64,000 bases of DNA from an uncultured Alphaproteobacteria bacterium. Lineage in GTDB: Bacteria; Pseudomonadota; Alphaproteobacteria; Rs-D84. Below the pieces are notes generated by a model. The model searched no databases, was not told the origin of the DNA, and saw only the letters and a program-made list of their open reading frames with translations. Position numbers and translations under genes: made by a program. Positions 8,204 to 61,801 of the stretch are shown piece after piece. The stretch lies in assembly GCA_949878575.1 (NCBI GenBank), contig CATLAX010000002.1, positions 357,634 to 421,633 of the forward strand, read 5' to 3'. The first letter of the stretch is position 1. Every line of letters begins with the position of its first letter.

Positions 8204-9315
8204 AACCGATTTTGTTTAATTTCAACGATGCCGAACTGGCGGCATTCGTAACAAACATGGGGCTGCCGAAATTTCGTGCGGCCCAAATTCGCGAATGGCT
8301 GCGGCGCGGCGCGCCTGATTTTGGGGCAATGAAAAACCTGCCGGCGGAATTGCGTCGCGATTTGGACGCCACTGCCCGGACGCTGCCGGTGCGGATTTTG
8401 CGGCGGCTGGATTCCACGGATGGTGAAACGACAAAATTTCTGCTGGAATTAAACGACGGCGAACAGATTGAATGCGTGTTAATGCGCACGACGTACGGCA
8501 ACAGCGTCTGCGTCAGTTCACAGGCCGGATGCGCCATGGGGTGCAAATTCTGCGCCAGCACTCTGCTGGGGCTGAAACGCAATTTAAGCGCATCGGAAAT
8601 CATGGCCCAGGTCTTGGTCGCCCAATGGGAACTGCGCCGCACACGCACGGACAAGACAGACGTACGTCCCAACGGGGACCCCAACAACGGCGATGTTTCC
8701 CATATTGTGATAATGGGTACGGGCGAGCCGTTGCAGAACACGGAAAACGTAATTGATTTCATAGAACGGGCCAACAGGGATTTGGGCATCGGATGGCGGC
8801 GCATCACGGTTTCAACGTGCGGCATTGTTCCGGGGATACGGCGGTTGATTGAATGGGGCCGGCCGATAAATCTGGCAATATCGCTGCATGCGCCGACAGA
8901 CGAGCTGCGCGGACAAATAATGCCCATAAACAACAAATACCCGCTGGCGGACGTACTGGCGGCGGCGGATGAATTTACCGCCCTGCACAACCGGCAGTTA
9001 ATGATAGAATACATATTACTGGGGCGGAAAAATTCCGACGGTGAAACGGAACTGTTCAACGCAACGCCACAGCATGCGGAAATGTTAAGCCGCCTGCTGG
9101 CCGGGAAAAACTGCATGGTGAACCTGATACCGTGGAACGCGGTTGACGAGCGTGATTTTGCGTCACCGTCCGGCAACGCCGTCCACAGATTTCAAGACAT
9201 ATTAATAAAAAACGGAATACATACGCGCATACGCCGCGAACGCGGCACTGACATCGGCAGTGCATGCGGCCAACTGCGCCTAAACAATGCAAAAAACAAA
9301 GGAAACAAGAAATGA
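8200..9315 (+). CDS. rlmN: 23S rRNA/tRNA (adenine-C2)-methyltransferase RlmN (radical SAM)
   Basis: CVSSQAGCAMGCKFCAST radical-SAM cysteine motif, RlmN-typical length and motifs; ATGA overlap with surA stop. Confidence 0.9.
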   Translation: MKPILFNFNDAELAAFVTNMGLPKFRAAQIREWLRRGAPDFGAMKNLPAELRRDLDATARTLPVRILRRLDSTDGETTKFLLELNDGEQIECVLMRTTYGNSVCVSSQAGCAMGCKFCASTLLGLKRNLSASEIMAQVLVAQWELRRTRTDKTDVRPNGDPNNGDVSHIVIMGTGEPLQNTENVIDFIERANRDLGIGWRRITVSTCGIVPGIRRLIEWGRPINLAISLHAPTDELRGQIMPINNKYPLADVLAAADEFTALHNRQLMIEYILLGRKNSDGETELFNATPQHAEMLSRLLAGKNCMVNLIPWNAVDERDFASPSGNAVHRFQDILIKNGIHTRIRRERGTDIGSACGQLRLNNAKNKGNKK

Positions 9316-9596
9316 CAATATACGAAAATCAATTAAAGTATCTGATACAGGACATGCACCGTATCGCGCATATCCGCGGGTTTAGCGATGCATTGCTGAT
9401 GCCGTTGGAATGGCGGCCGGCGGGCGGCATGACGCTGCTGCATGAATATGCGAACGGTGGCGCCGTTCTGGCCCCGGGCACGCACAGAACAACGATGAAT
9501 GATTTTATAAACGCATTCGGCGGATATATTGATGAAGAAAGCAACCTTAAATATTCCGCTGTCGCACAGCACGCACTACAAAGACTGGGGCGCTGA
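9312..9596 (+). CDS. Hypothetical protein (94 aa)
   Basis: ORF MTIYENQLKYLIQDMHRIAHIRGF…; start trimmed to the ATG overlapping rlmN stop; no recognisable family. Confidence 0.4.
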   Translation: MTIYENQLKYLIQDMHRIAHIRGFSDALLMPLEWRPAGGMTLLHEYANGGAVLAPGTHRTTMNDFINAFGGYIDEESNLKYSAVAQHALQRLGR

Positions 9597-9700
9597 TTAA
9601 AACAAATCCGCTTATGATTTATATAACACACCATAAATGCGGCCGGTTCGGTTATAATAAAGCGTTTGCAATATTGTTACCAGCGGATGCGTACGGAAAT

Positions 9701-9733
9701 AAAAAAATCCCCCGTTTGGGGGATTTTTTATTT
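9701..9733. terminator. Bidirectional rho-independent terminator (AAAAAAATCCCCCGTTTGGGGGATTTTTTATT)
   Basis: Perfect 8-bp GC stem with A-run upstream and T-run downstream; lies between convergent ORF 9312-9596 (+) and the HTH gene (-). Confidence 0.6.
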
Positions 9734-9952
9734 CCAGTACCGTAACAATTCCGGCGCCCACATCTGGATAACGCGGTATACCTGATACGGGGTCGGCGCA
9801 ATGCGCCCCTTTTCCATTTCATAGTACGCAATGCCGTGCACACCTATCTGGCGTCCGGCATGAAACGGGCTTAGTTTTGACCGGCGGCGGATTTTGTGCA
9901 TCCACAGCCCCAGGCTTTTATAAAATTCTTGTTCCGATTGTAATTTTTTCAT
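9728..9952 (-). CDS. Small XRE/Cro-type helix-turn-helix DNA-binding protein, copy 1 of a duplicated module
   Basis: 74-aa protein MKKLQSEQEFYKSLGLWMHKIRRRSKLSPFHAGRQIGVHGIAYYEMEKGRIAPTPYQ… with HTH_XRE-like signature (…Q..G…I..YE.G…P). The first ATG-GAG-GA of the tool ORF is better read as the GGAGGA RBS for the second ATG. An identical protein is encoded at 45239-45463. Confidence 0.7.
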   Translation of the reverse strand: MKKLQSEQEFYKSLGLWMHKIRRRSKLSPFHAGRQIGVHGIAYYEMEKGRIAPTPYQVYRVIQMWAPELLRYWK

Positions 9953-10169
9953 TTTTTCCTCCATGGTTTTTAGTTAATAAAAACACCGCCGTGATGAAAG
10001 GCGGTTGGAGGTTGATTACTACGAAAACGATAGTGCTGCTTATTCATATATATCACAGCCCTCCAACCAATTATGGAGTTAAAAAATGTTTTCAGAGGTA
10101 ATCACACCTCACACCGGTAATCGTCCGATGCGATAAAAACTATATCAAAATAAAATTAATATATGCAAA

Positions 10170-10200
10170 TAAAATCCCCCGTTTGGGGGGATTTTTATTA
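10170..10200. terminator. Hairpin terminator nearly identical to the one at 9701-9733 (AAAATCCCCCGTTTGGGGGGATTTTTATTA); terminates the large cysteine-rich gene
   Basis: Same GC stem/loop sequence as 9707-9724, A/T-run flanks; immediately after stop of ORF 10198-13686 (-). Confidence 0.55.
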
Positions 10201-13200
10201 GTCGGTCAGGGCCGTATCAATCAAATCGCCGTATTGCCCGACCATTTCGTTGCCGACCATACAGTTTAGATGGTTACCGACATCGGCCATAAAGGCGTCA
10301 TAGGCTTCTTTTTCAACCTTGTCCAGTTTGGCATCCTGGACGCTTTTGGTCGCCTGGTACGTCAGTATTCCACCAGCGGTGGCTGTAACCGCGCCACCAA
10401 CCAGATTTGTTATAGAACGGTTTCTGGCCGCTTTCTTTTTAGCGTCTTCATCGGGCTCCGCACTCAAACACGCCGCATGCAGTTTTTGCATAGCCGCATT
10501 AGCTGCCTTTTGCGCATCTTCAACAGCCTTTGACTTGGTGTTATAAGTTTTGTTCATCTCCGCCAAATTATCGTTATACGCTTTTACACTATCAGCATCA
10601 CTTTCGCATATCGAATATGTATACTGTACATCTGTCACATCCGAACGATCACAATCATCTGTTAAAGATATAGGTGTTCCTCTATGGTTCTTACAATTTT
10701 CAGGTTCGCCTTTTTTAAATTTAGCTCCACACGCAAACATACATGTTGTTTCTATCAGTGTAACTGTTTTGCCCGGATTTATAGCTTTTATTGTTGCTAT
10801 TCTGCGCGGATCTTGCAACGAAGTACAATTATCTGTTACGGTTTTTTCCTTGTCGGTTACAGCCGCCGGCATATCAGAAACAGCATTTTGATAGGCTATA
10901 TGTTTGTCGGTCACCTCACTGATAAGATCGGACATTTCCTCCTTTGCATCCCCTTTATTTTTGGAATACAGGTCTTTCAATTCACGGGCAGCTTTTACTG
11001 CACGAGTCATATAGGCGGATCTGTCTTCTGCCTTTGTTGATGTCATATAATTTGATGCGGCTGTTGTACATCTATTTACAATGTCACCGGCATCTTTAAT
11101 AGATGTGCTACCGTTTGTCCCCAGCAAACCGCCCAAGAAACCGCTGTTCTGCATTTTGTCCGTGGCAAAGCCACCCAGAACGCCGCTGCCAACCACGCCA
11201 GCCAGTGTCGTCCATGCTCTGGTGCGGCTGTTACCGCGGGCCGCATCACTGCGCGCGTCATCCGCAACCGAATTCGCCAGTTTTTCCAGCGCATCACCCG
11301 GTATCCATGAACCGCATGTAAACGCATCACCCGCCGCAAAGTATGCCGTTGACCAGTCAGAGCCCTTTGCTATAACGTCTTGGATCCGTTTGTCATCGGA
11401 CTGCAGCGTTACACGCACACGGCAGAACGATCCGTATATATCATTGCTGGCCGCGAACTGGTTCGGTTTCAGACCGGATACCGCATAACCCTTTGGCACC
11501 GTGTTTGATTTCAGCTTTACCCACAGGAACGTGCTGCCCAAATCATTTTTGCCCAGGATGCCGCCGTTGTTTGACGACATGCACTTGTTCTGTTCGCGTG
11601 TTAATTTCGCGTTGTACTTTGCCTGAGCCTCTTTTTCCAAATCATAAATCAGGTCTTTGAACAACGTGGACGCCGCCTGGGTTTCAACATACGTTGTGTA
11701 TGAAATCATCACAGGCTGGTCATAAATATTGCCCGCGGCATCAACCGTATAGCACACGCCCTGATCCGTGCCACCCTTTGACGTGCACAGCGCGTTGCCG
11801 TTTTCATCCACTGCCGCAACCTGTTCCGTGTTGGCGGTGATTGCCGTCGCGGCGCCGGCGTCAATCCAGCCTTCGCGTACGTTGCCGGCCCCGCCCCAGC
11901 TGGATGCGGACGAATTGTTCGCAATTTTCAACTTGTTGCGTTCAATGGCCAAATGTTCTTCGCATACTGACGCGGATTTTACCGTATCCAGGCACAGGCC
12001 AAGAACGATTGTGTAATCCAAAACGCCGCCCACCTTGTTCATGGATTTGTCAAAAGACGCCTCGCCGGTGTTGGTCAATGAAGAATACACATCCGTACGG
12101 TTACGATAGCAGTTCTGGTAATCCGCACCGCACATTGATTTTACGCAAGATGTCGCAACCGCCTGGCACTGGCGCTTCATCGTGGCGATGGCCGCGTCGC
12201 TGTAACTGCTGGCCAGGGTGGCGTTCAATGACGCAATCACGCCGATTGGGTCGTTGCCGCCTTCCTCATACTCAGGGAACAGCGTCGTAAACGCATCGTT
12301 GTTTATATATGTATAAGAATAGCTGCCCGTCTTGTTCGGGTTCGCCGCCGCATACTTGCAGTATGCGTCCGTGTTTACGACCGCCTCGCACCCGGTTTTC
12401 AATTCCGCGTACGTGGCGCTGTTGTTAATGGATTTGTCCTTGTTGCCGAACACCTGGCTGTAACAGGCCGCGCCGGAACCGGAACCGCAGATGCGCATTA
12501 CGCATGTCTTTATCGTGTCCGTGCATTTTTCCTTTGCCTTGGTGTCAAACTTGTCAACCAAATCGGCGATTTTTGCACGCATACCGGCATTCATGCGGGC
12601 GGCGTACGCCTCGTCGTAAATTTCTTCCTGATTATCCTCATCCTTTAACTGGGACGATGTCGGCATCTGGCCGTTGCCCAGAAACGTCGCATAGCAATAT
12701 TTGTTTGAACCGATTGTATCCATACAGGAATTCTTGATATATCCCGCGATGCTGGATTTGGATATAATATCCGTTCCAGCCAGCGACACCGGCAGGGCCG
12801 CAGTGCTTTCCGCCGTTGCGACGCCCTGATTAATTGACTCTACCAGGCTAACCGTCGTGGTTGTGCTGTTTTCATAGCATTTGTACGGATTTGTCGCACA
12901 CGCGTTCAAGATACACTGGTCAACAACCTTGTAACATGTTGAAACGGCGTTAACCGCGGCCAGCGCCGCGCCCTCTGCAATCATTTCGCCGATGCGCGAC
13001 GTGGCGGACGGCGTTGTGGACGTGTTCGCGGAACCGAACAGCTCAATCAATCCCTCTGACTGGCAGCGGGCCAGTGTGGAATCACAAAACACGCGCTGCT
13101 TTCTAAATTCCTTGTCCGTGGTACATAATTCAAAATCATTCCCGCAGACACTGTCCTTCTTTAAACATGCGGTATAGCGTTTTACACATGTGGACGTGTC

Positions 13201-13686
13201 GTATTTGTTGGATATGGCCGCACCGATAATTAACTGGCCCAGAACACTGCCGTCGGTCGGGTATGTGTAATCCGTAACCTCGCCATAACTGTTTTTAGAC
13301 GCAACCGTGGACAGCGCCGTGACAGTTCCCGTTCCAAACAGGCTGGATACTCCGGCGGTGCTGCACTGGGCCAGCGTGGACAAACACTGCGGCATTTTGC
13401 CGTGGAACAAAACCTTGGTCGTGCATTCTTCAAAGTCAGAGCCGCATGCGTCCCCACCCTTCATACAATTCGTGTACGCGTCAATGCACTCTGCATTCGC
13501 CAACAGGTTTGACGTCGTTGTCGTGGTGCCGCTGGTACTGGTGCCGGCGCCGGTAATGTATGACGTCATTGTCGGCATGCGCGACGACGCGGTGCCAATA
13601 ACACTGGGCCGCGCGGTCAGTGCATAAGATGCCTGAACCGTTGTCAAAACAGCCAGAAAACCAAACGATTTTGTAAAGAGACTCAT
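10198..13686 (-). CDS. Large (1162 aa) secreted cysteine-rich repeat protein, function unknown (candidate surface/adhesin or effector protein)
   Basis: N-terminal signal peptide (MSLFTKSFGFLAVLTTVQASYA), S/T-rich stretch, then two clear ~60-aa six-Cys repeats (C-x4-T-x-C-x6-C-x3-FE-x-CTT…C-x-STLA-x-C…LFG) and further paired-Cys modules; C-terminal Gly/Ala-rich hydrophobic segment. Confidence 0.7.
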   Translation of the reverse strand: MSLFTKSFGFLAVLTTVQASYALTARPSVIGTASSRMPTMTSYITGAGTSTSGTTTTTSNLLANAECIDAYTNCMKGGDACGSDFEECTTKVLFHGKMPQCLSTLAQCSTAGVSSLFGTGTVTALSTVASKNSYGEVTDYTYPTDGSVLGQLIIGAAISNKYDTSTCVKRYTACLKKDSVCGNDFELCTTDKEFRKQRVFCDSTLARCQSEGLIELFGSANTSTTPSATSRIGEMIAEGAALAAVNAVSTCYKVVDQCILNACATNPYKCYENSTTTTVSLVESINQGVATAESTAALPVSLAGTDIISKSSIAGYIKNSCMDTIGSNKYCYATFLGNGQMPTSSQLKDEDNQEEIYDEAYAARMNAGMRAKIADLVDKFDTKAKEKCTDTIKTCVMRICGSGSGAACYSQVFGNKDKSINNSATYAELKTGCEAVVNTDAYCKYAAANPNKTGSYSYTYINNDAFTTLFPEYEEGGNDPIGVIASLNATLASSYSDAAIATMKRQCQAVATSCVKSMCGADYQNCYRNRTDVYSSLTNTGEASFDKSMNKVGGVLDYTIVLGLCLDTVKSASVCEEHLAIERNKLKIANNSSASSWGGAGNVREGWIDAGAATAITANTEQVAAVDENGNALCTSKGGTDQGVCYTVDAAGNIYDQPVMISYTTYVETQAASTLFKDLIYDLEKEAQAKYNAKLTREQNKCMSSNNGGILGKNDLGSTFLWVKLKSNTVPKGYAVSGLKPNQFAASNDIYGSFCRVRVTLQSDDKRIQDVIAKGSDWSTAYFAAGDAFTCGSWIPGDALEKLANSVADDARSDAARGNSRTRAWTTLAGVVGSGVLGGFATDKMQNSGFLGGLLGTNGSTSIKDAGDIVNRCTTAASNYMTSTKAEDRSAYMTRAVKAARELKDLYSKNKGDAKEEMSDLISEVTDKHIAYQNAVSDMPAAVTDKEKTVTDNCTSLQDPRRIATIKAINPGKTVTLIETTCMFACGAKFKKGEPENCKNHRGTPISLTDDCDRSDVTDVQYTYSICESDADSVKAYNDNLAEMNKTYNTKSKAVEDAQKAANAAMQKLHAACLSAEPDEDAKKKAARNRSITNLVGGAVTATAGGILTYQATKSVQDAKLDKVEKEAYDAFMADVGNHLNCMVGNEMVGQYGDLIDTALTD

Positions 13687-43005: not shown

Positions 43006-43007
<2 letters not shown>

Positions 43008-43282
43008 AAACGCCGGCATTTGCCGGTGTTTTTTTATTTGTTCCGCGACCCCGTAAACAATACAAAATCATGCACAAGGACCCGGTAAAAACAGTTTTGG
43101 TTATTTTCCCCGCAATTTGCAACAAAAAGCACAAAAGGCCGGTGTTTGCCGGCATTTTGTTAATAATATCAACCATCGTGGCAACATGCACGAAACCGTC
43201 GTTTGGCCCGGCCCAATCACCACATGCACCGGCAATATAAAACATGCGAAAAAGGCCGGCAAACGCCGGTCTTTTTCTTTTA
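43006..43282. repeat. Array of three related GC hairpins (CCGGCATTTGCCGG / CCGGTGTTTGCCGG / CCGGCAAACGCCGG), each with A/T-run flanks
   Basis: Three terminator-like hairpins read at about 43009-43030, 43138-43158 and 43254-43271 within a 280-bp non-coding stretch between mreB and pal. Confidence 0.5.
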
Positions 43283-43307
43283 AGCAATAACTGTTGTCAA
43301 CAGACTA

Positions 43308-44658: not shown

Positions 44659-45213
44659 ATTAAACCTTCATTTAACCGTTCCGCGACCCGCGACATGGGT
44701 CCGCGCATGAATAATCGCATTTTTGCAAAATCCGTACAGGTAATTAGCGACACAGGCCAAAATTTGGGTATCATGCCCACGCCCCAGGCGTTGGCGATGG
44801 CCATGGATGCAGGTCTGGATTTGGTGGAAATAAACGCCAACGGCACGCCGCCCGTGGTAAAAATAATGGATTACGGCAAATTCAAATACGACCAGAAAAA
44901 ACGTGCGAACGAGGCGCGCAAGAACCAGAAAACGGTTGAGATGAAGGAAGTATGGGTAAAGCCTTTTATTGAAGAAAACGATTTGAACATCAAAATGAAA
45001 AAGGTGTTTGAATTTTTAGACGGCGGAAACAAGGTTAAGATTGCGGTCATGACGCGCGGGTCAAAGAAAGTACTGGCCCGGGGCAAGGATGCGGTGCCGG
45101 AACTGTTTGCACGCATTATGGAAATTGTTGGTGAACGCGGAACATTGGAATCCAAATCAAAACCGGATGAACGCACCAAGTCAATAATTGTCGCCCCGAC
45201 AAAGGCGAAATAA
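44659..45213 (+). CDS. infC: Translation initiation factor IF-3 with non-canonical ATT (AUU) start
   Basis: IF-3 N- and C-domains (…VKIMDYGKFKYDQKK…); AAGGAG RBS at 44647-44652, 6-nt spacer, then in-frame ATT at 44659; the tool ORF 44569 is a spurious upstream extension. Confidence 0.85.
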   Translation: MKPSFNRSATRDMGPRMNNRIFAKSVQVISDTGQNLGIMPTPQALAMAMDAGLDLVEINANGTPPVVKIMDYGKFKYDQKKRANEARKNQKTVEMKEVWVKPFIEENDLNIKMKKVFEFLDGGNKVKIAVMTRGSKKVLARGKDAVPELFARIMEIVGERGTLESKSKPDERTKSIIVAPTKAK

Positions 45214-45220
45214 AAAAATC

Positions 45221-45250
45221 CCCCGAACGGGGGATTTTTTATTTCCAGTA
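45221..45250. terminator. Bidirectional terminator (AAAAAAATCCCCCGAACGGGGGATTTTTTATT); a loop variant of the 9701-9733 hairpin
   Basis: Same stem as copy 1 with a different loop; lies between infC (+) and HTH copy 2 (-). Confidence 0.6.
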
Positions 45251-45463
45251 CCGTAACAATTCCGGCGCCCACATCTGGATAACGCGGTATACCTGATACG
45301 GGGTCGGTGCAATACGCCCTTTTTCCATTTCATAATACGCAATGCCGTGCACACCTATCTGGCGTCCGGCATGAAACGGGCTTAGTTTTGACCGGCGGCG
45401 GATTTTGTGCATCCACAGCCCCAGGCTTTTATAAAATTCTTGTTCCGATTGTAATTTTTTCAT
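45239..45463 (-). CDS. Small XRE-type HTH protein, copy 2 (identical protein to 9728-9952)
   Basis: Identical 78/74-aa translation; nt identity about 97-98% including about 200 bp of 5' leader. Confidence 0.7.
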   Translation of the reverse strand: MKKLQSEQEFYKSLGLWMHKIRRRSKLSPFHAGRQIGVHGIAYYEMEKGRIAPTPYQVYRVIQMWAPELLRYWK

Positions 45464-45689
45464 TTTTTCCTCCATGTTTTTTTAACTAAAAACACCGCCG
45501 TGATTAAAGGCGGTTGGAGGTTGATTACTACAAGATAATAGTGCTGTTTATTTATGTATATCACAGCCCTCCAACCGGTTGTGGAGTTTTTATATCTTGG
45601 AGGTAATCACACCTCACACCGGTAATCGTCCGGTGCGATGCGAATTATACCGGATTATTTTCGTGTTTGCAAATAATTACTGGATTGCC

Positions 45690-45790
45690 ACGGTCGCTAT
45701 GCTCCCTCGCAATGACAGTCGTACCGGAAATCATTGTCATTGCGAACGCAAGTGAAGCAATCCAGTAAAAAACGCCCCGGGCTGGGATTT
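45690..45790. repeat. Second copy of the nested palindromic element (outer IR ACTGGATTGC…GCAATCCAGT, inner IR CGCAATGACA…TGTCATTGCG) plus GC hairpin
   Basis: Inverted repeats read directly; homologous to 1-110; immediately downstream (minus strand) of the radical-SAM gene stop. Confidence 0.55.
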
Positions 45791-46782
45791 TATCGCTCGT
45801 TAAAACGCCATCCCTGTAACAGACGGGCGCGCGTTTCTTCGCGCCACGTGGCCTTTACCAAATCCACACGGGTATACAGCAACGACTTTGGTCCGTGTGC
45901 GGTATGCCATTTTGTTGAAATCTTGCGTCCTGAATTTTCGCCCAGCGTTACCCGCCCCGCACTGTCAAACGCAATCAAAGACATACCGTCGGCGGATAAA
46001 AACTGAAACTGTGGAAAATCAGAATGATGCGCCCATTCCATGCCACGCGCACGGCCGCCGTCAAGCAACGTTCCTTTTGAATAGTGCAATAAAATCTGGT
46101 CATCGACGATTGGCAACGAACGCATATTTGCCAAATCACCGACCAAAACTTCGTCTATAGTGTGACCACTTGAGCGTAACTGTTCCAATAATGCCGGAAA
46201 CATATCAACATGATTGTTAAAACCGGAAATATGAATAACAACGTTGGTATTTGGCATTTTGGCCAGGCGCGATATCACCGCGGCATTATTTTCTAATGCA
46301 TTTTTATGATACCTGTCCAGCGACAGCGAAATCTGCAATGAATACGGTTTGTGTGACGATATTACATGATGCAAATCCTGCAATATACTCTCGCCAAATC
46401 CGGCACGCACCCACGCGGCGTTGGTCTTTATATCGGTACCAATGCCCAAATCAAGACTGTGGTTCAATAATGTCGGCACATAATCGGCCGGTCCAAAGCG
46501 GTATGCCGACATAATTTCCCCGCCTGTAAACACAACATTATTTGAAAATGACTGGTCGGAATGCGCCTGGTCCAAATAAGAGCATATGGTACGGGCCGGA
46601 ATAAATGTCCGAGGATTCTTCGGCCCCGAACATTCACAGCAATGAGGGCACCGGTACCAACAATAATTTGTTGTTTTAAACACCAATACATACTTCGTAT
46701 GACGCAGTATGTTCCCCATGGGGAAATGCCGGTCGCGCCAGTTTAGGTATTTATAAATAATGCTCACAGGTATAAAATTCAT
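45790..46782 (-). CDS. Radical SAM domain protein, function unknown (lower GC than neighbours)
   Basis: CxxxCxxC motif NYCWYRCPHC and glycine-rich VVFTGGEI motif; 330 aa; AT-rich codon usage by eye. Confidence 0.7.
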   Translation of the reverse strand: MNFIPVSIIYKYLNWRDRHFPMGNILRHTKYVLVFKTTNYCWYRCPHCCECSGPKNPRTFIPARTICSYLDQAHSDQSFSNNVVFTGGEIMSAYRFGPADYVPTLLNHSLDLGIGTDIKTNAAWVRAGFGESILQDLHHVISSHKPYSLQISLSLDRYHKNALENNAAVISRLAKMPNTNVVIHISGFNNHVDMFPALLEQLRSSGHTIDEVLVGDLANMRSLPIVDDQILLHYSKGTLLDGGRARGMEWAHHSDFPQFQFLSADGMSLIAFDSAGRVTLGENSGRKISTKWHTAHGPKSLLYTRVDLVKATWREETRARLLQGWRFNER

Positions 46783-46832
46783 GTGCCACCTTTTTTGACA
46801 AAAGATAGCACACGACCCGATTTTGTCAATAA

Positions 46833-48050
46833 TTATTCATATCGCAGACTGTCAATCGGGTTTAGTTTGGCCGCCTTTAACGCCGGCACCACCCCGGACG
46901 CCAGTCCCACAATCACCGCAACAGACACCGACAGCACCACCGGCCAGATTGAAAACGGCACGTTGTATCCCAGGATAAGACGCCCCACCCCCTGGGACAG
47001 GCCCACCCCCAGAATCAGCCCCGTCATTGAGCCGATAAAGGATATGAATATGGATTCTGACAGGAACTGTATTATTATCTGGCGTTCACGGGCGCCGATG
47101 GCCTTGCGCACGCCGATTTCACGCGTACGTTCCGCAACAGACACCAGCATCATGTTCATAATGCCGATTGAACCCACCAACAGTGACACCGCCGCAATCG
47201 CAATCAGCAGCATTTTTAAATACCCCGTAACGGTGTTCATTGTTTCCATAACCTGTTTCATGTCCATAATCTGGAAATCATCCGCGGCGTCGTCCTTTAA
47301 CCGGTGCCGGTCGCGCAACAGTGCGGTTATCTGGTTTGTTGCCACGGTATTGTCTGCATCCGGATACAGTTTTAATGCAATCATGCCGACCGCGTTCGGA
47401 AAACGGCTGCCCTGCAGGCGCTTTTTTAATGTTGTTATCGGAATTATTATCATGTCGTCCTGGCTGCCCATGGCGGAATCGCCCTTTGCCCGGGTCATGC
47501 CTATTACGACAAAAGGCGTGTTTTGAACACGTATAACCTGGCCCACGGGGTCCGCCGGCAGGTCCAGTTCTTTTGCCGTTGTGGGCCCGATTACGGCATA
47601 TGTGGCCGCATTACGCACGGCTGCGTCGTCAAAGAACGTTCCCTTGTCCATTTCAACGTTTTGAACCGTCGTATAGGCGGGATACGCCCCGACCATGGAC
47701 GTGGCCCAGTTTTTATTGCCATAGACCACCTGGGCCGCGCTGTTCTGAACAGGCGTTATCGCCATAACATCCGGCAGGCGTCCTATAAATTCCGCATCAT
47801 CCGTGGTTAAGGTCTGGCGGTTGCCACTGCGCACGCCGCCCGTTTGCGCCGCACCGGCGCGAATCATAATAGTGTTCGTCCCCAGGGATGAAAACTGGTC
47901 CGTTATCTGCCGTTGCACGGTTTCACCCACGGCAACCATTATAACCACCGCCATAACGCCGATAACAATGCCCAGAACCGTTAAAAACGAGCGCATCTTG
48001 TTCCCGGAAACGGAAAGCCATGATTCCTTAAAAATATCGTTAAACGTCAT
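46833..48050 (-). CDS. MacB-type ABC transporter permease (FtsX family)
   Basis: N-terminal TM helix, large periplasmic domain, C-terminal 3-TM FtsX domain. Confidence 0.85.
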   Translation of the reverse strand: MTFNDIFKESWLSVSGNKMRSFLTVLGIVIGVMAVVIMVAVGETVQRQITDQFSSLGTNTIMIRAGAAQTGGVRSGNRQTLTTDDAEFIGRLPDVMAITPVQNSAAQVVYGNKNWATSMVGAYPAYTTVQNVEMDKGTFFDDAAVRNAATYAVIGPTTAKELDLPADPVGQVIRVQNTPFVVIGMTRAKGDSAMGSQDDMIIIPITTLKKRLQGSRFPNAVGMIALKLYPDADNTVATNQITALLRDRHRLKDDAADDFQIMDMKQVMETMNTVTGYLKMLLIAIAAVSLLVGSIGIMNMMLVSVAERTREIGVRKAIGARERQIIIQFLSESIFISFIGSMTGLILGVGLSQGVGRLILGYNVPFSIWPVVLSVSVAVIVGLASGVVPALKAAKLNPIDSLRYE

Positions 48051-48065
48051 TGTTTCCCCCCGGGG

Positions 48066-48791
48066 CTACAGATTACGGTCGCTTTTCGGCATGGGGCCGT
48101 CGTAATTTATATGGCCGTCGCGAATATGAATTAGCCGCGACGCATACTTTGCAATGTCAAATTCATGGGTAATCATGACAATCGTAATGCCCATGTCGTG
48201 ATTTAGCTGCTTAAAGAATTTCAAAATTTCGTTACCCATTTTACTGTCCAGGGCGCCGGTCGGCTCGTCCGCCAAAATCAATTTCGGGTCGCCGGCCAGG
48301 GCGCGCGCAATCGCGACGCGCTGCTTCATTCCGCCCGACAGCTGCGTCGGCAGATAATTTTCAAATTTTTCCAGTCCCACGCGCTTTAACATTTCGCGCG
48401 CGCGCCGCACGCGTTCCGACATCGGCAGCCCGCGGTACATCAGCGGCAACATCACGTTGTCCAGCACCGTCCGCTTTGCCAACAGATTAAACTGCTGAAA
48501 AACAAAGCCTATGTGCTGGTTGCGAATCACGGCCAGTTCGTCCGCAGACAGGCCCGTAATATTCCTGCCGTACAGTTCGTACGTCCCGCCTGACGGCGTG
48601 TCCAGCGCACCTATGATATTCATGCACGTTGATTTTCCGGAACCAGACGGCCCCATAATCGCCACAAATTCGCCGGCATGAACGTCAAAGGTTATGTCAA
48701 ACAAAACCTGCTGGGCGCCGCCGACCTCTAACGGGAAAATCTTCGTGATGCTTTTCAGCGATATTATAATTTCCGGTTTTTTGCTTTTCAT
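48066..48791 (-). CDS. ABC transporter ATP-binding protein (MacB/LolD type)
   Basis: Walker [13 protein letters not shown] signature LSGGMKQR, Walker [12 protein letters not shown]; start set at [13 protein letters not shown]. Confidence 0.85.
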
Positions 48792-48813
48792 ATGCCGCAC
48801 CGCCTTTGTCACA

Positions 48814-49995
48814 TTACATCGGGCCGCCCGGACCACGGCCGCCGCCATTGCGCTTGGCCCCGGTGGCGCCGGCGGAATCCATTCCCGCACGCCCGACGAT
48901 TATACGGTCGCCCTGCACTATTTCATCAGAGACAACCTCTGTCTCCGTCGCGGTTACCAACCCCTTTTCAAACGGGACCAGTGTCGCCTGTTCGCCCCGC
49001 AACAACGCCAGGTGTGTTTTAGGCGTCGCATCGCCCGGATTTTCCACTATTCCTTCAAAACTGCGCAGCAACAGGGCCGCATTCTGAACCTTCCAAACAT
49101 CGTGCTTTTCCGTTACGATGATTGTTACAAACGCCGTCATGCCCGGCATCAAGCGCAAATCGGAATTGTCAACATCTATCACCACCGTGTATACCACAAC
49201 GTTTGACGTTGTTGTCGGCGACAGGCGTATCTGGCGAACCACGCCTTCAAATGTCTGGGTCGGGTACGCGTCAACGGTGAATGTCACCGCCTGGCCTTCC
49301 TTTATTACGCCAATATCCGCCTCTGACACGGATGTTTCTATCTGCATACTGGTCAAATCTTCGGCTATTTCAAACAAATCAGGCGTCTGGAAAGATGCGG
49401 CGACCGTCTGGCCTTTGTCCACCTTGCGCGATATGACTGTGCCGTCCACGGGCGACGTAATCGTCGCATAGCCCAGGTTTGTCACAGCACGGTCGTACTG
49501 CGACTGGGCCCGTTTAACAGACTGTTCCGCCTGTTCATAGGTTGTCTGCGACTGCTCCATTTCCGCACGCGCGATATAGCCGTCGTTGTACAGGGTCTTG
49601 TTGCGCTTATATTCATTGCGGGCATAATTACGCTGGGACACGGCGGAATCAAGGGATGCTTTTGCCTCGTCCACGGACGCCTGCAGAACGGACGGCTCTA
49701 TTTTCAACAGCAAGTCGCCCTTTTTAACCTTTGAATTGTAATCCACGTACAGCTCGTCAATCGTACCGGATACCTGGGAACCGACACTGACCGTGTTTAC
49801 GGGCTTAATCTCGCCGGTGGCGGTCACAACCTGGCGCAGTTCACCCTTGTTTATCGGCAGGGTTACAAAGTCACCTTTTTTGGATTTGCCGCCGCCAAAT
49901 ATCAGCATCGCGCCAACAACAACCGCCGCCAGAATCAAAACCCACCATTTTCTGCGCCACAGCCATTTAAAAACGGCCTTTATTTTATTTTTCAT
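48814..49995 (-). CDS. HlyD/MacA-family periplasmic adaptor subunit
   Basis: N-terminal TM anchor, coiled-coil hairpin, barrel domains typical of membrane fusion proteins. Confidence 0.85.
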   Translation of the reverse strand: MKNKIKAVFKWLWRRKWWVLILAAVVVGAMLIFGGGKSKKGDFVTLPINKGELRQVVTATGEIKPVNTVSVGSQVSGTIDELYVDYNSKVKKGDLLLKIEPSVLQASVDEAKASLDSAVSQRNYARNEYKRNKTLYNDGYIARAEMEQSQTTYEQAEQSVKRAQSQYDRAVTNLGYATITSPVDGTVISRKVDKGQTVAASFQTPDLFEIAEDLTSMQIETSVSEADIGVIKEGQAVTFTVDAYPTQTFEGVVRQIRLSPTTTSNVVVYTVVIDVDNSDLRLMPGMTAFVTIIVTEKHDVWKVQNAALLLRSFEGIVENPGDATPKTHLALLRGEQATLVPFEKGLVTATETEVVSDEIVQGDRIIVGRAGMDSAGATGAKRNGGGRGPGGPM

Positions 49996-51322
49996 AATCT
50001 ATACCCTCCTGTTCCAGTTCGGCCTTTATTTCCCCCACAGCCAGCGCAACCGCCGCCCGTTTTGTAAACAAATCATATTTGGCCGCGTTGTTCTGCTTTT
50101 GCGCGTCAACCAGTTCCGACTGCGCCGTCTGCCAGTCCAGCATGGTCGCACGCCCCACCTTGTACATGCCGGCGGTGACCTTTTCGCTTTCCGTTGCAGA
50201 CTGCAACAGTGTTTCCGTCTGGGTCAAAACCTTTTGCGCCGTTTTATAGTTCTGATACGCCGTAAATATATCCAGCGCGGCATTATCCGCCGCCGCACGC
50301 TCAGACTCTTTGGCACGGTCATAGTTCGCCTCGGCCGAACGCACGCCATAATAATTTGCAAAACCCGCAAAAATAGGCATGGATGCACGGATACCGATAC
50401 TGCCGGAAACCTTGTGCCCGTCGTTTGCAAACGAATCCAATTCCGTATCGTTCCAGGAAATGGAGCCGGTCGCAGAAATACTGGGCAAATTCTTTAAAAA
50501 AGACGCATTTCGCCGGTGCCAGGCCGCATCCTTGTTCGCGGTCGCACGCAGCAAATCGGGACGGCTGCGCCGGGCGGCCTCCAGCAGCTCGTCAATGCTT
50601 TTGTTTTCCGTTGTACGCCCGAAATTTGACGGCATGTCCTGAATCACAATATCCTGGTCGGCGGGAAACGACAATTTTGACAACAGTGTTCCCTTTGCGA
50701 TTTCACGGTTGTTTTTCGCCCGCTCCAGCGCCAGCTCACGACTGGCCAGGGTTGTTTCCGCCTTTAACACATCTGCCTTGGCGACAGAGCCGGCCTTGTA
50801 CTTCTTTTGCGCCATGTCGCGCGCGGTCTGGGCCACTGTCCGCAGTGAATCAGCACTGGCCACGTCCGCATCCGCGTTAAGCAGCGCATAATACGCCCCG
50901 ATTACACCGTATACGTAATCCTGAATACTTTCGTCATAATCAAAACCGGTGGCACGCCATGTCGCGGCCAAAGTATTTAAATCCGCCAGACGTTTTCCAA
51001 AATCAAAAATCAGATAAGACGCCGACAATGACGCCCCGTAATTCCAATCGCCCCAGTCTTTGTTGCGGTAATCGCGACCCGCACTGGCCCCGGCGGAAAT
51101 ACTCGGCAAATAACCGGCATAACCCGCGTTTTTTGAAAAGCGCGCCGATTCGGCCGCCAAATATGCGGATGTTGTTTGTGGATTCCGGCACAGCCCCAGC
51201 TCTATTACCTCTTGCAGTCCCAGCGGCGTTTCCGGCAAAGTTTGGCGCGTGGCGCAATTTTCAACAGGCGCGCCAAACGCAGATAATGGCAAAAAACATG
51301 CCAATAATGTAAACTTTCTCAT
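49985..51322 (-). CDS. TolC-family outer membrane efflux channel
   Basis: Signal peptide, tandem coiled-coil plus beta repeats, 445 aa; heads the efflux operon. Confidence 0.85.
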   Translation of the reverse strand: MRKFTLLACFLPLSAFGAPVENCATRQTLPETPLGLQEVIELGLCRNPQTTSAYLAAESARFSKNAGYAGYLPSISAGASAGRDYRNKDWGDWNYGASLSASYLIFDFGKRLADLNTLAATWRATGFDYDESIQDYVYGVIGAYYALLNADADVASADSLRTVAQTARDMAQKKYKAGSVAKADVLKAETTLASRELALERAKNNREIAKGTLLSKLSFPADQDIVIQDMPSNFGRTTENKSIDELLEAARRSRPDLLRATANKDAAWHRRNASFLKNLPSISATGSISWNDTELDSFANDGHKVSGSIGIRASMPIFAGFANYYGVRSAEANYDRAKESERAAADNAALDIFTAYQNYKTAQKVLTQTETLLQSATESEKVTAGMYKVGRATMLDWQTAQSELVDAQKQNNAAKYDLFTKRAAVALAVGEIKAELEQEGIDYEK

Positions 51323-61600: not shown

Positions 61601-61801
61601 TATGGATTTTCATCATACCCCGGCCGCCCGATTTATTGTGGCCTGTTCCACCCGCGTGGCGCGTCGTGACATGTACAATCTCCATAATAAAAAACCATCG
61701 GAAACATTTCAGATGGTTGGATTTTGATTTTCGTGGCGGATGTTTAAGTCCGACAGCGGAATTCCCGCTGCAATATTAATTGTACTTTGAAATATTTAAT
61801 A

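Follow-up and report, generated by a model that had tools for sequence, protein, structure and literature searches.

The closest described counterpart of the element analyzed here is the Brt/Trp system of Bartonella henselae. Brt1-9 are highly expressed RNAs of 194-203 nt with a terminator-like end, and each of them is encoded directly upstream of a small XRE gene, trp1-9 (PMC5387305). The Brt/Trp set controls the BadA adhesin, and Brt was reported to be specific for Bartonella (Tu et al. 2016, PMC5387305). For Brt1, Shine-Dalgarno pairing in trans was proposed (PMC5387305). The element of this study is a small cassette in a stretch of 64,000 nt (the window) of contig CATLAX010000002.1 from an uncultured alphaproteobacterium of the GTDB order Rs-D84. 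Rs-D84 and its member Candidatus Enterousia live in the gut, have not been cultured, and have genomes of less than 1 Mb (PMC12306168). The cassette comprises positions 45214-45789 and carries a structured leader RNA followed by a gene for a small helix-turn-helix (HTH) protein. We consider it highly probable that these about 575 bp are specific for the species and were added between infC and a radical-SAM gene, which are convergent genes of ancestral origin, and that the cassette is a self-contained transcription unit with a structured leader of a new family; the proposed attenuation by the leader is included in this reading.

The cassette shares several features with Brt/Trp. Both occur in Alphaproteobacteria and in several copies per genome, and in both a structured RNA of about 150-200 nt with its own promoter (predicted in the present case) and a terminator-like end lies directly upstream of a small XRE gene. 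A link to the cell surface also exists in both cases, i.e., BadA in Bartonella, and secreted cysteine-rich and InlB-repeat proteins with the same leader here. In contrast, the Trp proteins have 108-152 aa and the proteins described here about 70-95 aa, and the Enterousia leader directly precedes also genes for secreted proteins that are not regulators. When the covariance model of the leader, R1, was applied with filters off to two Bartonella plasmid loci with Brt-like RNAs (5' 32 nt 97-100% identical to Brt1), the best score was 8.4 bits, at a site off the Brt position. The Brt 5' sequence is unrelated to the leader, and no homology was detected. The two share their logic, while membership in the same family fails. 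The likeness suggests that host-associated Alphaproteobacteria may use the combination of a structured leader and a small XRE gene repeatedly as a regulatory design.

The second type of system to which the leader can be compared is that of terminator-type riboswitches and attenuators. As in these systems, a sensor-like domain with covariation and a pseudoknot comes first, and an intrinsic terminator follows directly 5' of the Shine-Dalgarno sequence and the start codon. In the leader, a candidate alternative pairing, which would be mutually exclusive, overlaps the terminator stem. In contrast to these systems, no metabolite is suggested by the downstream genes, which encode regulators and secreted proteins, the putative switching sequences do not vary and look like Shine-Dalgarno and anti-Shine-Dalgarno sequences, and there is no Rfam match.

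Layout of the cassette and gene order in relatives

A preliminary description of this DNA had placed an HTH gene between infC and a nested inverted repeat, with the radical-SAM gene beyond, and had given the order on the minus strand as radical-SAM gene, palindrome, leader, HTH gene, terminator. All of these parts are present in the sequence, and the order is borne out by the sequence and the open reading frame (ORF) calls. Because the parts and also a second copy were confirmed in the sequence, the observation is real. The palindrome exists as well, but its span had been given as 45690-45790, about 15-20 nt off, and the last part of that span is a separate degenerate hairpin. The features are the following:

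Stop at 45213, plus strand: infC, an ORF convergent with the HTH gene
45219-45233, both strands: bidirectional intrinsic terminator hairpin, TCCCCCGAACGGGGG plus T-run, which ends infC (plus) and the HTH gene (minus) and lies within the duplicated unit
45239-45475, minus strand: small HTH gene of the XRE/Cro-C1 type, 78 aa from the first ATG, 74 aa from the ATG at 45463
45486-45637, minus strand: structured 5' leader RNA (R1, 134.2 bits, E 4e-40)
45488-45514, minus strand: intrinsic terminator of the leader (ACCGCC, 9-nt loop, GGCGGU, U-run), 13 nt upstream of the Shine-Dalgarno sequence
45672 to 45644, minus strand: predicted sigma-70-like promoter of the leader-HTH transcript, TTGCAA-17-TATAAT
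45677-45768, no strand assigned: nested palindromic repeat element, REP/MITE-like, the end of which (GCAATCCAGTAA) abuts the -35 box
45769-45789, minus strand: degenerate hairpin directly after the stop codon of the radical-SAM gene (repeat family D4)
45790-46782, minus strand: radical-SAM gene, last gene of a tolC-macA-macB-macB cluster

The gene order was compared with six loci of relatives (percentages are protein identities to the radical-SAM protein of the window, unless stated otherwise):

L009, 82%: tolC-macA-macB-macB, a small cysteine-rich gene (minus strand) and the radical-SAM gene, convergent with infC and udg
L013, 65%: tolC-macA-macB-macB-radical-SAM, convergent with infC and udg
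L011, 74%: radical-SAM gene after macB, facing accC
L135, 52%: radical-SAM gene after macB, facing gpsA
L136, 43%: radical-SAM gene facing gpsA
L066, no radical-SAM gene, infC 94% identical: macB directly faces infC

In L009 and L013 the site is empty, and the stop codons of the radical-SAM gene and infC are separated by a single bidirectional terminator of about 24 bp. The comparison of synteny, which the preliminary description had proposed for detecting an insertion, thus gave a divided answer: the HTH cassette is missing between the two genes in these relatives, but the radical-SAM gene itself is there. Deep conservation of the radical-SAM gene together with the HTH gene at this site, which had been named as the observation that would speak for an ancestral arrangement, was not found, as none of the five relatives with a radical-SAM gene (L009, L011, L013, L135, and L136) has an HTH gene beside it. 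The radical-SAM protein has 163 homologues, the identity of which slides smoothly from 98% to about 40%. Their sources, where named, are Alphaproteobacteria, and Candidatus Enterousia merdequi and Muribaculaceae occur once each. The protein contains the cluster motif CX3CX2C (CWYRCPHC); its match to PF04055 is weak (E 0.0038, below the cut-off), and many of the homologues carry PF04055. From the spread of the homologues and the gene order in the relatives it follows that the radical-SAM gene is a lineage gene tied to the macAB cluster. Judged from the sequence comparisons, it is an ancestral resident and not cargo, and only the approximately 575 bp between it and infC were added.

The cassette is present a second time in the window, over about 440-480 bp:

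9696-10178, minus strand: cassette copy 1, with terminator 9708-9722, HTH gene 9728-9964, leader 9977-10132, and a weaker promoter

Positions 9696-10134 and 45207-45639 (copy 2, described above) are 92.5% identical over 439 nt, far beyond chance. The ORFs are 98.3% identical with four differences, all of which are silent, as the two encoded HTH proteins are identical. The identity is 90.6% for the terminator, 78-89% for the leader and 59.5% for the promoter, and the sequences past the promoter are unrelated. The claim that copy 2 mirrors copy 1 is only partly right: the gene order is alike, but copy 1 lacks the palindrome and has a plain hairpin (10168-10199) instead. The genes upstream of the two copies, i.e., the radical-SAM gene and a gene for a cysteine-rich protein of 1162 aa, both lie outside the repeat.

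The HTH protein has a single close homologue (68% identity), which is encoded in L008 downstream of a pyruvate:ferredoxin oxidoreductase gene. The cassette of L008 contains two palindromes along with the same leader and terminator; the hairpin at 45219-45233 closes also copy 1 (9708-9722) and this homologue. Both junctions of copy 2 read ...TTTTTTA, which on either side belongs to the T-run of a terminator, and the palindrome is present on one side only. Target-site duplications were sought at the junctions, and no convincing ones were found. The ORF list also contains no transposase or recombinase ORF inside the cassette.

These results bear on the proposal of a joint, transferable cargo module that is directed at sites next to translation genes and is made up of the HTH gene and its upstream neighbor (the cysteine-rich gene in copy 1, the radical-SAM gene in copy 2). 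The order of upstream gene, hairpin or palindrome, leader, HTH gene, and terminator is indeed common to both copies, and there are relatives without the HTH cassette. The HTH module looks like a discrete, duplicated, and inserted unit, with empty sites in L009 and L013, and this part of the proposal is supported. However, the upstream gene does not travel along: the repeat ends inside the HTH promoter, the radical-SAM gene is vertically conserved without the HTH gene in five relatives, the homologous cassette of L008 follows the pyruvate:ferredoxin oxidoreductase gene, and other leader cassettes occur in many unrelated contexts. A role of the radical-SAM gene as cargo is thus contradicted, and a joint module of this kind has very little probability. 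The location next to essential translation genes, which had been taken as a preference, looks incidental; the cassette occupies convergent gene ends beside strong terminators. The case shows that "mobile module with cargo", concluded from gene order alone, can mislead in annotation; here the supposed cargo is ancestral and the small cassette is new.

Further leader cassettes were seen at comparable places. In L009 (5121-5851), a diverged leader (31 bits) lies before a cysteine-rich gene (170 aa, Ephrin_rec_like) between macB and the radical-SAM gene, and elsewhere in this locus a full leader with an 83-aa HTH_3 gene follows a pal-like gene. In L050 (5731-6195; infC 85% identical), a convergent leader cassette is again located after infC, with a 50-aa ORF that is not of the HTH type and then xseB. 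Convergent gene ends seem to be recurrent sites of leader cassettes.

The product of the radical-SAM gene (cluster 45790-51322, minus strand) has weak similarity to peptide-modifying enzymes of the YydG type and the sactipeptide type. Together with its kept place as the last gene after a macAB-tolC-type exporter, this similarity hints at a function in the export of a modified peptide.

Structure and conservation of the leader RNA and the HTH protein

The leader has a length of about 150 nt and shows strong covariation in five helices, one of which is a pseudoknot; it ends in an intrinsic terminator just 5' of the ribosome-binding site. About 100 aligned leaders have a common architecture. It begins with the promoter, the hairpin P1, GRGG, the 5' strands of P2 and P3, an optional hairpin, and CUCCAAC. 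This is followed by GGUUGGAGGG, the hairpin P4 with a conserved GAAUA...AAUAA loop, CUAU or CAAU, and the 3' strand of P3. The last part consists of AUAG or AUUG, the 3' strand of P2, AACCUCCAACC, the terminator with its U-run, the Shine-Dalgarno sequence, and the start codon. The leader of copy 2 includes a CUCCAAC/GGUUGGAGG hairpin between P3 and P4 and the pseudoknot P5. Across the leader alignment A4, the TATAAT column is conserved just 5' of P1, and the terminator stem and the U-run are conserved across the family.

The covariation was quantified with a plain MAFFT alignment of 99 leaders. In this alignment 90% of the cells pair, versus 74.6% in shuffles. Double-sided changes number 715, as compared with 229 in the shuffles, and none of the 500 shuffles reached 715. 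When the partners were moved by 1-3 columns as a control, pairing was 33-49%. With the covariance-model alignment, the respective values were 94.9% and 74.1%. Double-sided changes were found at every or nearly every pair of P1, P2, P3, and P4, and at three of the four pairs of the pseudoknot P5, for example at pair 378-399 (61 sequences with UA, 35 with AU). G-U pairs are frequent (e.g., pair 39-414 with 59 GU versus 34 AU) and are compatible with the strand of the HTH gene only. The two copies of the window are an example by themselves: P3 differs throughout between them, yet it is complementary in each (CAAGAUA/UAUCUUG and GAAAAC/GUUUUC). For both window leaders, the minimum free energy (MFE) fold (-52.6 and -51.3 kcal/mol) is the one supported by covariation and contains the complete terminator. 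The covariation fold was also the MFE fold in 90 of 91 leaders of the family, and the terminator stem was formed in 90 of the 91.

R1 scored the leader of copy 1 with 131.3 bits, next to 134.2 bits for copy 2, and nothing else in the window exceeded 23.4 bits. In Rfam 15, only tRNAs reached the gathering score in the window and in 17 related loci, and the leader region yielded only noise at E<=10. The leader belongs to a large RNA family with no counterpart among the Rfam 15 models. A search of full-text literature by the organism name and by motif and palindrome strings returned only unrelated primers and papers, and no description. A leader peptide was considered as well and was rejected: an ATG/GTG ORF inside P4 is present in copy 1 and in L008, and is missing from copy 2 and from most family members. 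The match with 23.4 bits (E 1e-5) is located at 61686-61773 on the minus strand and comprises a P1-like hairpin, CCAACC, a terminator with U-run, GGAG, and an ORF of about 19 codons; it may represent a leader-related element in minimal or decayed form.

The distribution was analyzed with the search pattern GGTTGGAGG-N35-65-CCTCCAACCGCC, which was derived from the three available leaders and scanned in species-representative genomes. It matches at least 118 stretches. Among the matches listed, nearly all are from metagenome-assembled genomes of gut Alphaproteobacteria, labeled Candidatus Enterousia, uncultured Alphaproteobacteria or proteobacterium, and Rickettsiales bacterium. Several matches per genome are usual; two lie in the window, and RUG12675 has at least 10 in one genome. 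R1 gave 103 matches in 100 related loci, 95 of them with at least 67 bits; several lack the exact pattern, and some loci have clusters of three. The position of the leader is invariant, i.e., 15-60 nt upstream of an ORF on the same strand with its own Shine-Dalgarno sequence. Among 111 pattern matches listed, 90 distinct downstream proteins were found (same-strand ORF starting less than 100 nt downstream). About 40 of the proteins from the matches listed are small XRE proteins of 70-95 aa, and about 38 have a signal peptide and are mostly cysteine-rich orphans; both classes co-occur in the same genomes. When nine of the secreted proteins were scanned with Pfam together with the 1162-aa protein of the window, the only matches were occasional ones to Flg_new (InlB B-repeat, Listeria-Bacteroides).

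The HTH protein has probably 74 aa, because a GGAGG Shine-Dalgarno sequence lies 6 nt upstream of the ATG at 45463 and this ATG agrees with the starts of the homologues. The protein itself has no Pfam or NCBIfam match at E<=0.01. It comes close to being an orphan: among 5.8 billion proteins, a word-indexed search found two clusters of homologues and an exhaustive HMMER search found seven. The AlphaFold2 model is a five-helix bundle with a pLDDT of 87, and the top Foldseek matches were P22 c2, HipB, and C.BclI (TM 0.52-0.65, probability about 1.0, with E-values of only 0.025 and above). The window protein and 27 leader-associated homologues were aligned; HTH_31 was matched by 25 of these 28 sequences (best E 1.3e-10), and the profile of this alignment matched solved XRE structures (best E 1.8e-9). 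By the profile of this alignment and the predicted fold, the window protein is a divergent regulator of the XRE type. It shares with the XRE/Cro-C1 family (HTH_3/HTH_31) the predicted five-helix bundle and the signature positions G..R and E.G, and its relatives match HTH_31; in contrast to the family, it is itself too divergent for any Pfam or NCBIfam threshold.

Proposed function of the leader

Transcription attenuation is the likely mechanism, with a putative switch and a putative signal. After the promoter has fired, the leader would fold into the compact pseudoknotted structure with the intrinsic terminator at its 3' end, and because of this end most transcripts would stop before the gene. 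Premature termination is thus the default prediction, since the covariation fold including the terminator is also the MFE fold in nearly all leaders. An external signal (a small molecule, a protein, the ribosome, or the temperature) would shift the fold. As a candidate for this shift, the invariant GGUUGGAGG could pair with CCUCCAACC and take 3 nt from the terminator stem, which would lead to read-through and translation. In the window copies the fold with the GGUUGGAGG:CCUCCAACC pairing is nearly isoenergetic (-52.3 and -49.6 kcal/mol). The structure, the conservation, the position, and the terminator of the leader are direct results of the analysis, while the switch and the signal belong to the model.

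Several points weigh against this reading. Averaged over the family, the terminator fold is favored over the antiterminator fold by 10.9 kcal/mol, so a strong external factor or another mode of switching would be needed. The pairing of GGUUGGAGG and CCUCCAACC cannot be tested by covariation, because both sequences are invariant. The invariance of GGTTGGAGG and CCTCCAACCGCC is partly by construction, because the search pattern fixed both, and the R1 matches without the exact pattern soften this only slightly. Termination and read-through are predictions from the folds. For the origin of the cassette, the polarity of the insertion rests on six relatives, and the close relative L066 is also without the radical-SAM gene.

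Three other explanations compete with the attenuation reading. The most serious one, though unlikely, is that the leader is mainly a free-standing small RNA that acts in trans, with its CCUCC motifs pairing with Shine-Dalgarno regions, and that control of the downstream gene is secondary. It is favored by the predicted promoter and terminator of its own, by two CUCC-containing motifs that resemble anti-Shine-Dalgarno sequences, by the terminated fold being the MFE fold in 90 of 91 leaders, and by the Brt RNAs, whose abundance contrasts with the very low transcription of the downstream trp genes (PMC5387305). However, the leader keeps an invariant place, 15-60 nt before a same-strand ORF that has a Shine-Dalgarno sequence of its own, and the supported fold has the CUCC motifs in base pairs and not in loops. 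It is extremely improbable that the conserved region is an operator or promoter array for the HTH protein at the DNA level, without an RNA function. XRE proteins do bind palindromic DNA, the region has dyad symmetries, and a palindromic element abuts the -35 box, but operators predict neither compensatory changes that keep pairs 150 nt apart nor frequent strand-specific G-U pairs, and the same leader precedes also genes that do not encode HTH proteins. The third explanation concerns the protein, which could be the antitoxin of a toxin-antitoxin pair or a remnant of a phage or restriction-modification controller. The fold matches, which include HipB, HigA, C.BclI, and P22 c2, would agree with this, but the cassette has no partner ORF and is monocistronic between promoter and terminator, and the homologues at about 40 loci are likewise solitary, so that this explanation, too, is most improbable.

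Within the attenuation reading, a further-reaching idea can be put forward only tentatively, as it is somewhat more doubtful than probable. The leader would represent a new class of riboswitch-like attenuators that respond to a ligand or a factor, and would be the backbone of a lineage-wide regulon in host-associated Rs-D84. With at least 10 copies in genomes smaller than 1 Mb, this regulon would link small XRE regulators with cysteine-rich proteins that are secreted or located at the surface; the Brt/Trp circuit of Bartonella would be a convergent or very distant counterpart. The leader would add one candidate to the short list of orphan riboswitch-like RNAs. As an abundant and well-supported orphan RNA structure, it offers a concrete way into the control of secreted and surface proteins in Rs-D84 bacteria.

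Palindromes, other hairpins, and the surroundings of copy 1

The palindrome at copy 2 has outer arms of 12 nt (45677-45688 and 45757-45768) and inner arms of 11 nt (45707-45717 and 45735-45745), and both are 100% complementary. Members of its family are built of a conserved outer stem (CTGGATTGC/GCAATCCAG) and an inner stem (TCGCAATGACA/TGTCATTGCGA), with an asymmetric internal loop between the stems and a variable loop. Many related genomes contain dispersed copies, in both orientations and also in arrays. Like repetitive extragenic palindromic elements and bacterial interspersed mosaic elements (REP/BIME) or miniature inverted-repeat transposable elements (MITE), the palindrome is short, imperfectly palindromic, and intergenic, and has many dispersed copies, often beside terminators. 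Unlike these, the palindrome is found preferentially directly upstream of the -35 box of HTH-type cassettes. Within 270 nt upstream, it was present for 12 of 34 leaders of the HTH type and for none of 35 leaders of the signal-peptide type, with a background of 7% per 270-nt window, and in several species its end directly adjoins the -35 box, with an identical junction. This preferred site suggests a regulatory or insulating role. As RNA, the palindrome folds at -45.8 kcal/mol, and it may therefore end or insulate the upstream operon; alternatively, it may be a putative operator of the HTH protein.

A second, partial copy of the palindrome lies at the edge of the window:

1-108, no strand assigned: partial second palindrome copy, edge-cut (1-96), and an intact CGCCCCGGGCGGGGCG terminator; 85% identity over 82 nt

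It is located downstream of a minus-strand gene that ends near 118. The junction GCAATCCAnTAAAAAACGCCCCGGGC is the same at 1-108 and at 45757-45782, so the palindrome and the hairpin recur together. The degenerate hairpin at 45769-45789 is, by sequence resemblance, a remnant or variant of the CGCCCC...GGGGCG terminator, which is intact at 77-108 and in relatives. It also looks like a hybrid of hairpins of the CGCCCC type and the ATCCCCC type.

Copy 1 is bracketed by two near-identical hairpins at 9701-9732 and 10168-10199 (AAAATCCCCCGTTTGGGGGATTTTT, 91% identical; family D3). The resemblances of the hairpins around both copies may be a trace of recombination at terminator hairpins. The gene for the 1162-aa protein (10198-13686, minus strand) lies beside copy 1, and its product has a signal peptide and is a cysteine-rich orphan. 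It has no Pfam match, and among the fetched loci of relatives only one weak partial match was found (32% over 108 aa, L032). On the other side, rlmN is followed by an orphan ORF of 94 aa (9312-9596, plus strand) with a single cluster of 99% identity, known from this species only. The gene rlmN is absent from all fetched loci of relatives.

In contigs of three assemblies of the same species (L002:8694-11765, L005, and L007), the radical-SAM side of copy 2 is fused to the side of copy 1 that carries the 94-aa ORF and rlmN. The crossover falls inside a stretch of 141 nt that is identical in both copies. The segment missing in these hybrid contigs carries mreB, infC, accBC, and rnpA, and an assembly graph of the form A-R-B-R-C yields the identical path. 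The hybrid contigs are probably an assembly artefact (repeat collapse) rather than a true deletion or excision of 35.5 kb between direct repeats.

Two further observations concern hairpins elsewhere. The repeat family D2 comprises nine copies of a terminator-like hairpin of the GCCGGCA type with about 37 nt, three of which are clustered at 43006-43285 between mreB and a pal-like gene. In L089 (41-423), at least three to four palindromic elements form a tandem array within 400 bp.

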